In this document: positions 12,038-18,854 of the stretch, in pieces
Position numbering within the stretch: position 1 is the first letter of the stretch
Layout: each line of letters starts with the position of its first letter
Assembly (NCBI GenBank): GCA_944332475.1
Contig: CALVKA010000002.1
Location: forward strand, 449-64,448
Direction of reading: 5' to 3'
DNA length: 64,000 nucleotides
From: an uncultured Bacilli bacterium
GTDB lineage: Bacteria; Bacillota_I; Bacilli_A; RF39; UBA660
Position numbers and translations under genes: made by a program
Notes under the pieces: model-generated
The model's input: only the letters and a program-made list of their open reading frames with translations
Told to the model about the DNA's origin: nothing
Database searches by the model: none

Positions 12038-12640
12038 TTATTTTGCTAAAAAGACGCGAAATAACTTTTCGCTATATAAATCTTGATCTAGTTCCAACAT
12101 TCTCTCTGGATGCCATTGTACACCGATTTGAAAATAATGATCAGGGTTTTCCACGGCTTCAATCAAACCGTCATCAGACTGAGCCACAACATCAAAATTC
12201 CCACCATCTAAAACAGTAAAGTTATGGAAAGAATTCACTCGAACATAATCCTCCCCTAAAATTTGATATAACCTACTATCTTTTTTAATCGCAACAAAAT
12301 GATGATAACCATCATGTTCTAAATTATGTTCAACATCTCCAATTCCAACCAAATCTCTTCCCGTTTTCCATAAAACCATAGACTGCATTCCCTGACAAAT
12401 ACCAAGTAATCGTAACTGATGTTTAACAGCATAATCGATTAAGAAAAAATCCCAGGGACCTACAACATCTCCACCTGGTAATAAAATACCATCTACATCT
12501 TTTAACTTTTCTAAAAACACATCTTTTGAATCTTCATCACGAACAGTAACTACCTCACCACCAAAACGCGTAATCGCATTTTGATAAAAGTGATTCCTAA
12601 CTTCATCATTTTCAGGACGAAGCAATAATAAAACCTTCAT
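12038..12640 (-). CDS. class I glutamine amidotransferase / gamma-glutamyl hydrolase-like (peptidase C26 family)
   Basis: 200 aa. Nucleophile elbow LGICQGMQ and His-Glu pair in VQWHPER. Confidence 0.75.
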   Translation of the reverse strand: MKVLLLLRPENDEVRNHFYQNAITRFGGEVVTVRDEDSKDVFLEKLKDVDGILLPGGDVVGPWDFFLIDYAVKHQLRLLGICQGMQSMVLWKTGRDLVGIGDVEHNLEHDGYHHFVAIKKDSRLYQILGEDYVRVNSFHNFTVLDGGNFDVVAQSDDGLIEAVENPDHYFQIGVQWHPERMLELDQDLYSEKLFRVFLAK

Positions 12641-12654
12641 AATAGAAAAGAAGT

Positions 12655-13881
12655 TTATCTCAACTTCCCTTTCATACCTTTTAAACCATTTACTCCTCCA
12701 TGAGCAGCAAAACCTTGAAGAATATTAGTTTCAAAAGAATGAGTTTTACTAACTCGTTTTTTATAATCCTTAACACCAATATTAATCATCTCATCCAATA
12801 CAGAAGAAAAATCAATACCTTTTGCTTCCCATAAATAGAATGCTAAACTACCAGGAATAGAATTAATCTCATTAACATAAACTTTATTTTTTTCACTATC
12901 AATCAAAAAGTCAATTCTACTATTTCCAGAAGAACCAAGTGCCCTAAATGCTTTAACAGCAATATCTTCTACTTCTTTTCTAACTTTTGCAGGTAAATCA
13001 GCTGGTAACTTTCTATTAGCAGAAGCCATACCTTTAGAAGTTCCCTTCATAGGTACTTTTCCACCTTTTAATTTACCACCTTTGCCACCACCAATATATT
13101 TATCTGCATATGTTAAAAATTTATGTCCAGAAAGAACTTCTTCAATCTCACTAACTTTTTGACGTTCATAATTACCCATAACCGCAATATTAACTTCTTT
13201 TAAATTTTGAACAACTTCTTCCACTAAAATCTTCTTATCATATTGAATAGCATCATCAATCGCATCAATTAACTCCTCACGATTACTACAAACCGCAATA
13301 CCTACACTAGAACCAGTAGTAGCAGGTTTAACAATCACAGGATAATCTAGTTTTTCTACCTTTTCAACAACTGCATCGCTATCTTGTTTATAATCAATAT
13401 CATAAAACCAAACATAATCTGTCATAGGAAGTTTGGAATTCTTCCAAATATCTTTCATAAACACCTTATCCTGTCCTACAACAGATGCATATACATCACT
13501 ACCAACAAAAGGAATACCGATAGTTTGTAAATAGCCCTGTAAACCACCATCTTCTACATTTGTTCCATGAACAACTGGTAAAACAATATCCACTTCTGTA
13601 ACAATAGTTCTAGGGAACGTTTTCTTTTGTAATACAAATGCTCCCTTTCTATAATATAAAACAACATTCTTACCATACTTTTGAATTAAAGATAAATCTT
13701 GATACACTTCGATATCTTTTAACATTTCCCCAGTATACCATTCTCTATCCTTTGTAATATAAATTGGAATAATATCATATTTTTCTTGATCCAATTTATT
13801 CATTGCTTGCATAGCAGAAATAATACTAACTTCATGTTCAACAGTTTCTCCACCAAAAATAACACCAACTTTAATTTTCAT
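12655..13881 (-). CDS. ddl: D-alanine--D-alanine ligase family ATP-grasp enzyme, long form with loop insertion
   Basis: 408 aa. N-terminus KVGVIFGGETVEHEVSIIS, HGTNVEDGGLQGYL, ATP-grasp core and C-terminal NEINSIPG. About 20 extra residues (GGGKGGKLKGGKVPMKGTSKGMASANRK) lie between the DKY and LPA positions. Confidence 0.8.
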   Translation of the reverse strand: MKIKVGVIFGGETVEHEVSIISAMQAMNKLDQEKYDIIPIYITKDREWYTGEMLKDIEVYQDLSLIQKYGKNVVLYYRKGAFVLQKKTFPRTIVTEVDIVLPVVHGTNVEDGGLQGYLQTIGIPFVGSDVYASVVGQDKVFMKDIWKNSKLPMTDYVWFYDIDYKQDSDAVVEKVEKLDYPVIVKPATTGSSVGIAVCSNREELIDAIDDAIQYDKKILVEEVVQNLKEVNIAVMGNYERQKVSEIEEVLSGHKFLTYADKYIGGGKGGKLKGGKVPMKGTSKGMASANRKLPADLPAKVRKEVEDIAVKAFRALGSSGNSRIDFLIDSEKNKVYVNEINSIPGSLAFYLWEAKGIDFSSVLDEMINIGVKDYKKRVSKTHSFETNILQGFAAHGGVNGLKGMKGKLR

Positions 13882-13892
13882 ATTCTCAACTC

Positions 13893-15506
13893 CTATTCAT
13901 TATATGTATCTGGCAAATCATTTTCAAAAAGTGCATAAACTTCTCCATCAGCAGCCAACCTTCCAATAAAAGGATATGCATCTCGAACATCATTCAATAC
14001 AATAATTCGATTCTTTTCAAACCCTTGAGAAAGTAATCCTTCTCGAATCGGTTTTGTTTTATGTTTTCCTATTAAAATAGCATAATCGGCAACATGAGCA
14101 ATCTGCTCCCCAAACTTTTTATTATATTGATCTTCTTTTTCTCCAAGTTCAATCATTCCTGGAGTAACAACAACTTTAACACCTGGCATCATACCAAGAA
14201 CTTTACAAGCATTTTCTGCTCCAACTGGATTAGAATTATAAGCATCATCTATTTGATAAAAATTACCAAGCCTCTTTAACTCTAAACGATGTTCCACCGG
14301 TCTAACCCCTTTTACAGCCTGCTGTAAATCAGAAATAGGAATATCAAATTCATATCCAAAAGCAAGACCAGCTAAAATATTATAAACATTATGATCTCCT
14401 AATAATCTAGTTTCAAAATGATATTCCTTATCATCACCAGGAAACTTCACATCAAACTCCGTTCCCCTATTAGAACATCTAATATGCATCGCTCGTACAT
14501 CTACATCAGGATTATCAATTCCAATCCAAATAACTTTTACTTTATTTTTCAACTGATAAGAAACTTGCTTAGGATCATCTCCATTTAATACCGCAAATCC
14601 ATCACTAGGAAGAGATTCAATAAGTTCAAACTTTCCATCGATAATATTCTGTTCGCTTCCAAACGTCTCCAAATGAGCAGTACCAATACGAGTTAAAATT
14701 CCATATTTAGGTCGAACCAACTTACAAAGTCCACGAATTTCCCCTTTTACATAAGCTCCCATTTCAGCAATAAAGATATCATTAAACTTCGTTAAATCAT
14801 TATTAATAGTCATAATAAGTCCATTATAAGTATTCAAATTTCTAGGTGATGGTAAAGCATTATATTTAATATTTAAAATATCACTTAAAATATTTTTACT
14901 ACTTGTTTTACCATAACTACCAGTAATACCAATAATCTTTAAACTAGGCATACTTTTTAATTTACTTTGAGCTTTATGTTTATAAAAATGATAAACCCCT
15001 CTTTCAATTGGATAATTAATAATATTAGCAACAAAAACAATAAATGGATTCAACACTATCATAATAGTTAATATAGTAAACATTCCCCAGACAAATTGAG
15101 GATTACCATTTTGCCATAGTAATAGACAAGTAGGAATCAAATACAAAATAGAAATCGTAACAATTAACCGACTCACCCTCTTAGTAACCACAAGAGGCTT
15201 TTTATTTTGGTCTTCTGCCAAACGATTTCGCCAAGCATAAGTTAAGAATAAAAACAAACCACTTAATACTAAAACTAAAATAATAGCAAACTTTTCTATA
15301 TCATAAACAACTAATAACCCTATTAAAGAAAGAAAACAAGCTGCCAAATCCAAATCCCAAAACAATTTAGCATTACGAAATACCCACTTTAAATAGCGAT
15401 TATTTTCATTATATAAATTTTGTTGTAACATATGTAAATATCTTCTAGTTTTACATACCAAACAAACAAATATGCAAAGTAATAAAAACAAATAAACAAT
15501 TATCAT
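13893..15506 (-). CDS. MurF-like Mur ligase with N-terminal 5-helix membrane domain
   Basis: 537 aa. Residues 1 to about 165 are hydrophobic helices. Then P-loop GITGSYGKTSSK, and a MurF-type C-terminal domain with DDAYNSNP and PGMIELG. Confidence 0.75.
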   Translation of the reverse strand: MIIVYLFLLLCIFVCLVCKTRRYLHMLQQNLYNENNRYLKWVFRNAKLFWDLDLAACFLSLIGLLVVYDIEKFAIILVLVLSGLFLFLTYAWRNRLAEDQNKKPLVVTKRVSRLIVTISILYLIPTCLLLWQNGNPQFVWGMFTILTIMIVLNPFIVFVANIINYPIERGVYHFYKHKAQSKLKSMPSLKIIGITGSYGKTSSKNILSDILNIKYNALPSPRNLNTYNGLIMTINNDLTKFNDIFIAEMGAYVKGEIRGLCKLVRPKYGILTRIGTAHLETFGSEQNIIDGKFELIESLPSDGFAVLNGDDPKQVSYQLKNKVKVIWIGIDNPDVDVRAMHIRCSNRGTEFDVKFPGDDKEYHFETRLLGDHNVYNILAGLAFGYEFDIPISDLQQAVKGVRPVEHRLELKRLGNFYQIDDAYNSNPVGAENACKVLGMMPGVKVVVTPGMIELGEKEDQYNKKFGEQIAHVADYAILIGKHKTKPIREGLLSQGFEKNRIIVLNDVRDAYPFIGRLAADGEVYALFENDLPDTYNE

Positions 15507-15515
15507 AAAAACCTC

Positions 15516-16256
15516 CTAAATAAAATTGTTAAGAATAGAAACTACTTGAGGTAAATTTTCTATATATGCATAATGCGTACCAGGAAGAACAATCAATGCC
15601 GCATCATACATCATATCTTCTAACATTTTTGCTTCTTCTACTGGTGCTTCTTCGTCTTGATCTCCCCATATTAACAACGTGGGCTCTTCAATCTGTTTAG
15701 CAAAACTCGACAAATCTTCATTCACAACTTCGACCAAAGTTTGTCTCATAATAGGACTAGCCGCTTTATAATCACGAGAACCAATATATTTTTTCATTTC
15801 TTCACCAATTTTATCCAATCCAGGCAAAGTTTTTAATTTCTTCAAAATTCTTGTAGATAATGGCAACTTCTTCTGCAACCGAATACAAGGACTACCAAAC
15901 AAAACCAATTTTTCAATAGGATGGTTAGAAGAATATTTAATTGCAACTCTACCACCAAAAGAATGTCCCATAACAATAGGCTTTTTTATTTTTAATTGTT
16001 TAACCAAATCTTCAATTAATAATACGTAATCGGTAATCGTCCAAGGTTTTGACGGTTCTTCACTTTCTCCAAAACCAGGAAAATCCAAAATTGTAATACG
16101 AAAACGATCAGAAAAATAATCACCTAAAAACTTCATCATCTGAATATTTTGTCCCCATCCATGAAGAAGCAAAATATCTTTTCCCTCACCATATTGTATG
16201 TAATTAACAGAAACTCCTCTAATATTTGTTTTCATATTATCACCTACTAGAAACAT
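15516..16256 (-). CDS. alpha/beta-fold hydrolase
   Basis: 246 aa. HGWGQN oxyanion region, nucleophile elbow GHSFGG and a C-terminal His (GTHYAY). Confidence 0.75.
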   Translation of the reverse strand: MFLVGDNMKTNIRGVSVNYIQYGEGKDILLLHGWGQNIQMMKFLGDYFSDRFRITILDFPGFGESEEPSKPWTITDYVLLIEDLVKQLKIKKPIVMGHSFGGRVAIKYSSNHPIEKLVLFGSPCIRLQKKLPLSTRILKKLKTLPGLDKIGEEMKKYIGSRDYKAASPIMRQTLVEVVNEDLSSFAKQIEEPTLLIWGDQDEEAPVEEAKMLEDMMYDAALIVLPGTHYAYIENLPQVVSILNNFI

Positions 16257-16335: not shown

Positions 16336-16692
16336 CTACTTATCCTCTTTCTCATCTTCATGAATTTGATCAATGATTTTTTCTATATGTTCTCCATAAG
16401 CAATAGAAGTATCATAAATAAATTTAAGTTCTGGAGTATGCCTTATATCGATACGTTCTGCAAGTTTACTACGAATAAAAGAACTTGCTCCTTCTAAGGC
16501 TTCTAAAACAACATCCTTCTTATCTTCTTCTAATACAGTAAAATATACTTTACAATAACTGTAATCACTACTAGTGTCACAATCCGTAATCGTTACAAAC
16601 TTCAAATCTTCATCTCTTACTTCTTCCATCAAAATAACACTAATTTCTTGTTGAATCAAATGATTAAGTCTTTCTATTTTAATACTTGCCAT
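16336..16692 (-). CDS. rbfA: ribosome-binding factor A
   Basis: 118 aa. Position after infB and the family pattern ...VTITDC..S.D...CKVYF.... Confidence 0.85.
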   Translation of the reverse strand: MASIKIERLNHLIQQEISVILMEEVRDEDLKFVTITDCDTSSDYSYCKVYFTVLEEDKKDVVLEALEGASSFIRSKLAERIDIRHTPELKFIYDTSIAYGEHIEKIIDQIHEDEKEDK

Positions 16693-16715
16693 AATAGTTT
16701 CCTCCTATCTGGTAT

Positions 16716-18854
16716 CTATCTTTTTACTTCTACTAAATCGTATATTTCTATGATATCTCCTTCTTTATAATCTTGGCAATTTTCTAAAGTAATACCACAG
16801 TCCATTCCTTTCGTAACTTCTTTTACTTGATCTTTCTCATGTTGCAAAGTATTAACAGCTCCATTATAAACAACAACATCATCACGAATAATACGAGCCT
16901 TTTCATTATTACGAACAGCACCATTAACAACATGACACCCAGCAATCAAACCAACTTTAGAAAATTTAAAGATTTGACGAACTTCAAGTTTACCAGTAAC
17001 CTGTTCTTCATATTCAGGATCAAGCATTCCTTTCATAGCATCTTCCATATCTTCAACAACTTTATAAATAATATCATAAGTTCTAATTTCAACACCATAT
17101 TCTTTTGCATCATCCTGAGCTTGACTATTCGCACGAACATTAAATCCAATAATAATAGCATCACTTGCTCTAGCTAAAACAATATCACTTTCCGTAATAC
17201 CACCAACAGCACCACGAATGACATTAATTTTAACACCTTCCACATCAATTTTTTCTAATGCCCCACGAACAGCTTCTAAACTTCCATTAACATCAGCCTT
17301 TAAAACAACATTAATTTCTTTTACCCCTTCTTGAATACGTCCAAATAAATCTTCTAAAGATAGTCCACTTAAATTTGTATCTTTCTCTCTAACTCTTAAA
17401 CGCCTTTCTTCTGCGATATGTTTCGCCTGTTTTTCTGATTCGAAAGCCATAAACTTATCACCGGCATTTGGAACATCACTAAGCCCTGTAACCTCTACAG
17501 GTGTAGATGGAGTAGCTTCTACCACGTTTTGACCCAAATCATTTCTTAAAGTACGAACTTTACCATAAATTGTACCAACAACAATAGGATCTCCTAAACG
17601 AAGTGTACCATTTTGAATAAGTAAAGTAGCAACAGATCCAACCTTACTATTCTTCTTAGATTCAACAACAACACCACTAGCATAACGTGATGGATTAGCC
17701 TTATACTCTTGCATCTCAGCAATTAATAAAATATTTTCAAGTAATTCATCGACACCTTCTCCAGTAACAGCAGAAATCTTATTAACAATAACATCTCCAC
17801 CCCACTCCTCTGGAGTAAGTCCATGCTCAACCAACCCAGTCATAACACGATCAACATTAGCATCTGGTTTATCAATCTTATTAATCGCAACAATAATAGG
17901 AACTCCTGCAGCCTTTGCATGATCGATAGCTTCCACCGTTTGAGGCATAACACCATCATCCGCTGCAACAATAATAATAACAATATCAGTAATAGAGGCC
18001 CCACGTGCTCTCATCTCAGTAAAAGCAGCATGTCCTGGAGTATCAATAAAAGTAATCTTCTTACCATTACAAGTAACAGAATAAGCACCAATTGCTTGTG
18101 TAATACCACCAGCTTCACCTGATGCTACATTACTTTTACGAATCATATCTAATAAAGTTGTTTTTCCATGATCAACATGACCCATAATGGTAACAACAGG
18201 AGGTCTTTCTACCAAATCTTCTTCCTTATCTTCAATTTCAAAATTTTCAAAATTAGAAATATCAGCCGTCTCTTCTTTTTTCAATGTTTTGTTATAGTCA
18301 GCAACAACAACTTCAGCCGTTTCAAAATCAATAGACTGATTAATATTAGCCATAACACCAAGTCCCATTAACTTCTTAACCAATTCAACTGGTGCCACCT
18401 CTAACAATCCAGCAAGCTCTGATACAGTCATACCATCCTTATATAAAACAACATGCTCATCAGGAGTTGCTTCATTCTTCTGTAATTTTTCACGATGTTT
18501 GTAAATCTTTTTTCTCTCTTTAAAGAAATCAGATTTTTTTGTATCATTTTTCTTTTGTGATTTTGGTTTTACCTTTTCAAAAGAAGTGGAATTATCTAAA
18601 TCAAATTTTGTGTTCATAGCCAACTCTTCAGCTTTATCATAAACCTTTTCTTCGTATAACCTAGATTCTAAATCCTCAATATCTCCCTCAACATAATCTT
18701 CCTGATCCTGTAATTCATTATCCAGTAAAATAATGTCTGTTTCATCTAAAGGTGTCGTCTCATCTTTATATTCGATTCCAATCTTATCACATAAAGCCTT
18801 GATTTCCTCAACTGTCTTGCCAACATCCAATGCATAATCTTCGATATTCATCAT
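16716..18854 (-). CDS. infB: translation initiation factor IF-2
   Basis: 712 aa. GTPase motifs [17 protein letters not shown] and NKID, plus C-terminal IF-2 domains. Confidence 0.95.

Follow-up and report, generated by a model that had tools for sequence, protein, structure and literature searches.

A MurF-type ligase with a five-helix membrane domain in place of its UDP-binding domain in an uncultured Bacilli bacterium

The 64,000-nucleotide stretch analysed here, hereafter the window, comes from an uncultured Bacilli bacterium of the GTDB lineage RF39; UBA660 (assembly GCA_944332475.1, contig CALVKA010000002.1). A gene on its minus strand (13893..15506) encodes a protein of 537 amino acids, which we call TM-MurF, and in which an N-terminal membrane domain of five helices is followed by the central and C-terminal domains of a MurF ligase. 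This membrane domain occupies the place of domain 1, the part of MurF that usually holds the uridine-diphosphate (UDP) end of the substrate. We document below the architecture of TM-MurF, its positive-inside topology, its status as the sole MurF of its genome, its phyletic pattern and the clade that it forms. TM-MurF is almost certainly the housekeeping enzyme that adds D-alanyl-D-alanine (D-Ala-D-Ala) in this organism, a catalytic role predicted from genome content and homology.

A membrane domain in place of MurF domain 1

The gene is one uninterrupted open reading frame of 537 codons, with residues 1-194 (14925..15506, minus strand) forming the membrane domain and residues 194-537 (13893..14927, minus strand) the Mur-ligase central and C-terminal domains. 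Pfam assigns Mur_ligase_M (PF08245, E 2e-38) to residues 194-382 and Mur_ligase_C (PF02875) to residues 406-523, and a scan at E<=10 returned no Pfam match in residues 1-190. The P-loop GITGSYGKTSSK lies at residues 193-204, about 30 residues past the last membrane helix, and the core also carries AEMGA, AHLExFGS, GxHNxxN, DDAYNSNP (residues 420-427) and TPGMIELG, whose PGMIELG part spans residues 449-455. The P-loop, Mg/ATP and DDxYNxNP motifs are invariant among 36 diverse homologues. The best NCBIfam model for the protein is MurF with 213 bits, followed by MurE (75-84 bits), MurC (71), MurD (61) and MurT (24), and its top sequence and fold matches are the MurF structures 1gg4, 4cvk, 4qdi and 3zl8 (Foldseek E 1e-19 to 1e-21). 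These results bear out an earlier note on this DNA, made from the letters of the window, which had described the remainder of the protein as MurF-like from its DDAYNSNP and PGMIELG motifs and had counted only about 30 residues between the membrane helices and the P-loop.

The NCBIfam murF model TIGR01143 gives 212.8 bits against a cut-off of 288.6, so that the threshold for the whole-protein family is missed, and the match covers only positions 68-367 of the 418 profile positions, leaving positions 1-67 unmatched. E. coli MurF can be aligned to TM-MurF only from E. coli residue 99 onward. Taken with the lack of an N-terminal Pfam match, this partial profile match and this late start of the alignment indicate that domain 1 is truly missing. 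The possibility that a normal domain 1 had been misread as hydrophobic, which the earlier note itself had raised, is excluded by the profile, the alignment and Pfam, none of which shows a domain 1 in TM-MurF. The central claim of that note, that a five-helix membrane domain substitutes for domain 1, is upheld by the same three lines of evidence and by the AlphaFold2 models described below. Judged by its sequence, TM-MurF is closest to MurF and yet fails two tests that define this family, namely the score cut-off and domain 1. Its tail LFENDLPDTYNE is confined to the membrane-form clade, in which it follows the motif LxENDLPDxFNE, whereas canonical MurF proteins terminate in KGSxGMxLE.

Hydropathy of TM-MurF gives hydrophobic stretches centred near residues 10-15, 56-85 (two helices), 115-124 and 146-158. 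AlphaFold2 places helices at residues 2-29, 52-66, 71-98, 109-131 and 136-184, and hydropathy combined with two AlphaFold2 models delimits the membrane helices to about residues 2-22, 52-66, 71-92, 109-131 and 136-162. Structure prediction, which the earlier note had proposed as a check along with topology prediction, and hydropathy thus each return five N-terminal membrane helices. Modelled alone from its alignment, the membrane domain reaches a predicted local distance difference test score (pLDDT) of 94.5 and a predicted template modelling score (pTM) of 0.87, which indicates a bundle of definite structure instead of a loosely attached anchor.

Conservation within this domain was read from an alignment of 43 N-terminal domains from across the phylum, which share 19-68% identity with the one studied here. 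Residues Q28, Y32, T108, R113, P166, E168 and A179 are invariant, and Q29 and R110 are nearly so. The conserved polar residues make up QQxxY after helix 1, TxRxxR before helix 4 and PxE after helix 5, and in the predicted topology the invariant ones all fall in cytoplasmic loops or beside the membrane. The mean number of lysines plus arginines is 4.8 in the segment after helix 1, 7.7 in the segment before helix 4 and 6.4 in the segment after helix 5, all three predicted to be cytoplasmic, against 0.3 and 0.4 in the first and second outer loops. This distribution of charges, high in the cytoplasmic segments and near zero in the outer loops, places the ligase in the cytoplasm. By the positive-inside rule, the N-terminus is predicted to lie outside, with the ligase and all the conserved polar residues on the cytoplasmic side.

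We compared the isolated membrane domain with the PDB by Foldseek and obtained no match at E<=1e-3. A wide search with VIA-align reached a best Z of 7.0, against generic helical proteins, although the lack of a match is no proof of a new fold. No stand-alone family of the membrane domain was found among proteins of 82-356 amino acids. The 186 matches in this size range are mostly singletons from short contigs, many with a partial Mur_ligase_M domain, and they look like fragments.

The sole MurF of a walled genome, and its relatives

The host assembly is 1.43 Mb long, 95% complete and has a guanine-plus-cytosine content of about 30%. A whole-genome search with the MurF model returned five Mur ligases, which are TM-MurF, MurC, MurD and two MurE; MurC, MurD and both MurE each score above their own family cut-off, and no canonical MurF was found by this search in the 95%-complete genome. 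The same genome encodes MraY (295 bits, above cut-off), MurG (303 bits), at least five transpeptidase domains of penicillin-binding proteins (PBPs) and a single Ddl, which is the gene directly downstream of TM-MurF. The presence of MraY, MurG, PBPs, Ddl and the other Mur ligases implies that the organism makes peptidoglycan and leaves TM-MurF as the only candidate for the D-Ala-D-Ala-adding step. The earlier note had proposed that the enzyme acts at the membrane on a lipid-linked or otherwise non-UDP substrate, had suggested a search for a second, canonical murF, and had named a sole murF as the first of two observations that together would tell against its proposal; this first observation is what the genome gives. 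Nor is a view of TM-MurF as an accessory paralogue supported, since it is the only MurF-like gene, next to the only Ddl, of this genome.

The two MurE paralogues lie outside the window, at C2:249074-250480 and C1:111529-112983. They have 466 and 482 amino acids and score 352 and 420 bits, both above the MurE subfamily cut-off. In a genome this small, a second MurE might have the task of attaching another residue, such as a bridge or branch amino acid of the type-B peptidoglycan kind.

The earlier note had also called for a survey of such fusions, and they proved widespread. The N-terminal 185 residues alone matched 1022 database proteins, nearly all of them 520-550 amino acids long and with both Mur-ligase domains. 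A scan of a genome collection found the architecture in at least 541 species genomes, the carriers being uncultured Bacilli, Tenericutes, Mycoplasmatota and Erysipelotrichaceae metagenome-assembled genomes (MAGs) from guts and rumens, together with Clostridium sp. CAG:417 and Mycoplasma sp. CAG:877. Exact look-ups identified distant copies in Turicibacter faecis, Turicibacter sp. TJ11 and KK003, Culicoidibacter larvae, Mycoplasma sp. P36-A1, Mycoplasmatota bacterium zrk1 and Erysipelotrichaceae MAGs; NCBI labels these copies MurF or 'Mur ligase family protein' and leaves the membrane domain unmentioned. In a sample of 399 genomes from across the phylum-level group, the membrane-domain profile matched 84; the matches come from walled families, with rates of, for example, 36/48, 4/4, 4/4 and 6/7, and no wall-less family has any.

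This conservation bears on the question of whether the protein exists as annotated. Two genes, one for a small membrane protein and one for a shortened Mur ligase, could have been misread as one, or the hydrophobic leader could go untranslated, and nothing favours such an artefact except the odd architecture itself, so that we regard its probability as negligible. The frame is continuous and an AGGAGG Shine-Dalgarno sequence stands 5-6 nucleotides ahead of the ATG at 15506, overlapping the TAG stop of the upstream hydrolase gene; a strong ribosome-binding site at the first ATG implies that the hydrophobic N-terminus is translated. The identical fusion, at 520-550 amino acids, is found again in over 1000 database proteins as well as in closed genomes, which means that it is neither chance nor an assembly artefact. 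The N-terminal motifs are invariant, and the short membrane-domain matches are mostly fragments from short contigs. The conservation data thus refute both the two-gene and the untranslated-leader versions of the artefact.

At a finer scale, a sample of 201 genomes from the order of this bacterium shows the membrane domain in 123 and a full-length canonical MurF in about 80 (75 above cut-off and about 5 just below it or truncated). About 98 genomes hold the membrane form only, about 55 the canonical form only and 25 both, which rules out strict mutual exclusion of the two forms, and 23 near-complete genomes hold neither MurF type at E<=1e-48, a gap that may reflect wall loss in some lineages or more divergent genes. 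These counts indicate that the membrane form serves as the MurF of most of these genomes, which are reduced and belong to walled bacteria. In a large clade of small-genome bacteria, cultured gut genera among them, it is the most frequent MurF-type gene.

One genome of the sample (G185), which also has a canonical MurF, carries a pseudogene of the membrane form at C2:103463-103971, with several TAA and TAG stops in the membrane part, next to a hydrolase gene that has stayed intact.

A maximum-likelihood tree was built from 99 sequences, using the ligase cores only, and rooted on the two MurE of this genome. All 41 membrane-form cores sampled form one clade, with a support of 99 in the Shimodaira-Hasegawa-like approximate likelihood ratio test (SH-aLRT); the canonical MurF clade is supported at 97 and a third clade of soluble MurF-like proteins ('type 3') at 100, and the membrane-form clade groups with these two. 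This three-clade tree indicates that the membrane form is not a recent derivative of a local canonical gene. The membrane forms of this order make a monophyletic group (87) within their clade, whereas the canonical MurF sequences of the order are interleaved with those of other families. A single clade with a monophyletic order fits the vertical inheritance of an essential gene, and the membrane form appears to be old and of single origin, with a tree that follows taxonomy. In phmmer comparisons against the TM-MurF core, membrane forms score 190-614 bits and canonical MurF of the same order 64-164 bits.

The third clade comprises proteins of about 460-480 amino acids in larger genomes of the phylum, which match positions 35-406 of the MurF profile at 240-258 bits, below cut-off. 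They often occur as tandem copies alongside a membrane-form MurF; examples are G227:C1:1091517-1092662 and the tandem pairs in G259:C65 and G283:C1.

A co-inherited hydrolase and other neighbours

The gene directly upstream of TM-MurF (15516..16256, minus strand) encodes a serine hydrolase of the alpha/beta fold, 246 amino acids long. The gene directly downstream (12655..13881, minus strand) encodes the D-Ala-D-Ala ligase Ddl, a long form of 408 amino acids in which a Gly/Lys-rich insertion (about residues 263-300) breaks the Ddl-model match into two parts. Beyond Ddl lies a C26 / class I glutamine amidotransferase-like protein of 200 amino acids (12038..12640, minus strand), an inconstant neighbour, and infB and rbfA (16336-18854, minus strand) immediately precede the hydrolase-MurF-Ddl unit.

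To follow these neighbours we used 80 related loci, each from a relative at 63-85% identity, and 20 further loci from other orders; related genomes are not independent samples, and the co-occurrence counts are to be read with this in mind. The gene order alpha/beta hydrolase, TM-MurF, Ddl is kept in 79-80 of the 80 related loci, while the C26 amidotransferase is found in 23 of the 80 and rbfA/infB in 18-20. Ddl stands directly downstream of TM-MurF in all 80 related loci but in only 7 of the 20 loci from other orders. The hydrolase is directly upstream in 16 of these 20, including those of Turicibacter and Culicoidibacter. The earlier note had named the Ddl and the amidotransferase as the neighbours of TM-MurF, which they are, and had missed the conserved hydrolase upstream. 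On its question of whether the fusion always sits beside the long Ddl and the C26 gene, the answer is yes for Ddl among the relatives, no for Ddl in most of the 20 distant loci, and no for C26. A trio of Ddl, C26 and MurF reminiscent of MurT/GatD, which that note had proposed, was rejected, since the C26 gene occurs in only 23 of the 80 related loci and belongs to a family distinct from GatD.

The hydrolase orthologue is present in 124 of the 201 genomes of the order, that is, in 123 of the 123 with the membrane domain and in 1 of the 78 without it, the latter through a weak match. In five genomes with the canonical form only, the best match to the hydrolase has an E of 1.6e-8 and 26% identity. 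The membrane form appears and disappears repeatedly across the genera sampled, and the hydrolase does so with it every time. The hydrolase is thus a constant, co-inherited partner of TM-MurF. Its Ser99 (in GHSFGG), Asp201 and His228 are invariant, indicating that it is probably an active serine hydrolase, and its nearest solved relatives are generic esterases, lipases and C-C hydrolases. A complex prediction for TM-MurF and the hydrolase gave an interface score (interaction prediction score from aligned errors, ipSAE) of 0.00 in two runs made without controls, and carries no weight for or against binding.

Outside the window, at C1:89481-90239, lies another alpha/beta hydrolase gene, a paralogue whose product shares 37% identity with the MurF-linked one, and many relatives have a similar second copy. 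Of five genomes checked among those with both MurF forms, four encode a pair of Ddl, one of them short (about 327 amino acids), the other long (about 400 amino acids) and adjoining TM-MurF.

Substrate, pathway position and relation to known ligases

Our favoured reading, held with middling confidence, is that TM-MurF is the housekeeping ligase joining UDP-N-acetylmuramic acid (UDP-MurNAc)-tripeptide to D-Ala-D-Ala, built as an integral membrane protein. Its ATP-binding central domain and its C-terminal domain would act in the cytoplasm as in any MurF, activating the C-terminal carboxylate of the stem tripeptide and then joining it to D-Ala-D-Ala provided by the adjacent Ddl. The compact five-helix domain would stand in for domain 1, and the cytoplasm-facing QQxxY, TxRxxR and PxE, near the junction of membrane and ligase, would take over the holding of the diphosphate end of the substrate; the Gln/Gln/Tyr and Arg/Arg set is a plausible replacement for the uridine-diphosphate site. 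The last cytoplasmic precursor step would then take place on the membrane surface next to MraY, to which the product could be handed over, and the co-inherited serine hydrolase would be a functional partner. A UDP-MurNAc-tripeptide substrate is supported by TM-MurF being the sole MurF in most carriers and by an ordinary-looking MraY. Several points weigh on the other side. To our knowledge, the Mur-ligase relatives without domain 1 (MurT, FPGS and CapB) all work on substrates that are not UDP-linked. Five conserved and tightly packed helices far exceed the needs of a simple anchor, and the coexistence of both forms in 25 of 201 small genomes, with two Ddl in 4 of the 5 checked, suggests that the forms are not wholly interchangeable. 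Nor does this reading account for the obligate hydrolase partner.

These points lend some interest to a possible, though doubtful, reordering of the pathway, in which D-Ala-D-Ala is added to undecaprenyl-diphospho-MurNAc-tripeptide, that is, to lipid I or lipid II carrying a tripeptide. The lipid carrier would have received the tripeptide precursor from MraY beforehand; its polyprenyl chain would be bound by the membrane domain, and its diphosphate by the conserved arginines that lie at the membrane face. The loss of the UDP-binding domain 1 is in line with this scheme, as is the presence of a conserved and confidently folded five-helix bundle (pLDDT 94.5) instead of a single anchor. Solved complexes of MurE and MurF have the pyrophosphate of the substrate at the boundary where the N-terminal domain meets the middle domain, and for MurT this boundary has been argued to be where lipid II exits the membrane (PMC6113224). 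In TM-MurF the same boundary is where helix 5 leaves the membrane, and the invariant or near-invariant R110/R113, Q28/Q29/Y32 and E168 sit at this interface; the conserved Gln/Tyr/Arg set, however, would equally suit a uridine diphosphate. Genomes with a canonical MurF as well, 25 of the 201, would be easier to explain if the two enzymes differed in substrate, but in the roughly 98 genomes where TM-MurF is the sole MurF, MraY would need to accept UDP-MurNAc-tripeptide routinely, and this MraY is an ordinary above-cut-off match with no sign of alteration. We also know of no biochemical precedent for the addition of D-Ala-D-Ala at the lipid stage, which counts against the scheme. Extended to all walled bacteria with small genomes in this phylum-level group (Turicibacter, Culicoidibacter, Erysipelotrichaceae and RF39-like gut lineages), it leads to the tentative suggestion, on which we place no great reliance, that these organisms complete the stem peptide on the membrane, on a lipid-linked tripeptide and with the help of a dedicated hydrolase.

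It is improbable, in our estimation, that the hydrolase-TM-MurF(-Ddl) unit is instead specialised, making or editing an alternative end of the stem peptide, or recycling or repairing precursors at the membrane, and that TM-MurF is the sole MurF only where the canonical gene has been secondarily lost. The genomes with both forms and those with two types of Ddl would be accounted for in this way, as would the strict tie to a serine hydrolase that looks catalytically intact (123/123 against 1/78, invariant triad), the unusual Gly/Lys-rich insertion of the long Ddl and the decay of the membrane form to a pseudogene in a genome with canonical MurF (G185). Most carriers, however, lack a MurF or Ddl beyond these two and retain PBPs, for which D-Ala-D-Ala donors are needed. 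The membrane-form clade, moreover, agrees with taxonomy throughout the phylum, as expected of a core gene, and it is the canonical genes of the order that are scattered among other families in the tree, as if they were secondary arrivals.

The housekeeping ligase that we favour shares with canonical MurF its central ATP-binding and C-terminal domains, its catalytic motifs, its gene order beside ddl and its position in the pathway. It differs in having a five-helix domain of about 190 amino acids instead of domain 1, in falling below the family cut-off, in forming a separate clade with its own tail (ENDLPDxFNE) and in being tied to an alpha/beta hydrolase. That a Mur-ligase core can work without domain 1 is known from the poly-gamma-glutamate synthetase CapB/PgsB, which acts with membrane partners, and from FPGS; these enzymes have other substrates and motifs, TM-MurF showed no particular resemblance to them, and neither is among its significant family matches. 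Fused enzymes such as MurE-MurF (8F5D), MurC-Ddl and MurF-Alr offer a precedent for domain rearrangement and for substrate channelling in late precursor synthesis, but they retain domain 1 and are soluble, whereas TM-MurF swaps the domain for a membrane module.

MurT (NF045635; 6H5E, 9SQ9) also has the Mur-ligase fold without domain 1, and its action at the membrane on a lipid-linked precursor provides a precedent for the geometry (PMC6113224). The analogy with MurT drawn in the earlier note, as a Mur ligase without domain 1 that acts on lipid II, is thus a fair one structurally. MurT, however, is soluble, has a zinc ribbon and a DNAAD motif, needs the CobQ-type amidotransferase GatD, and amidates instead of ligating a dipeptide. 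The MurT model NF045635 gives TM-MurF 24.4 bits against a cut-off of 800, and the amidotransferase beside TM-MurF belongs to Peptidase_C26/GATase and not to GatD. By these comparisons, TM-MurF is not a MurT.

A MurF tree of Erysipelotrichales has been published (PMC12786226), and the passages of that paper that mention MurF are silent on a membrane domain; elsewhere the murF of Erysipelothrix is listed as ordinary (PMC9637936). In the literature searched, whose incomplete coverage leaves absence unproven, we found no description of a membrane-anchored or membrane-integral MurF.

In the textbook scheme, the Mur ligases are all soluble cytoplasmic enzymes and MraY carries out the first membrane step. 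Here the last Mur ligase is an integral membrane protein without the UDP-recognising domain. If the UDP-linked substrate is kept, TM-MurF would be a natural case of replacement of a substrate-binding domain, with channelling of the product to MraY. If the substrate is lipid-linked, the textbook order of the MurF and MraY steps would be reversed, and the order of the pathway would differ in these bacteria. The membrane form should escape MurF inhibitors that occupy the domain-1 uridine pocket, and the strictly co-inherited hydrolase becomes an additional candidate player in wall synthesis. These proteins should be of interest to cell-wall biochemists, for whom Turicibacter and Culicoidibacter are cultured carriers.

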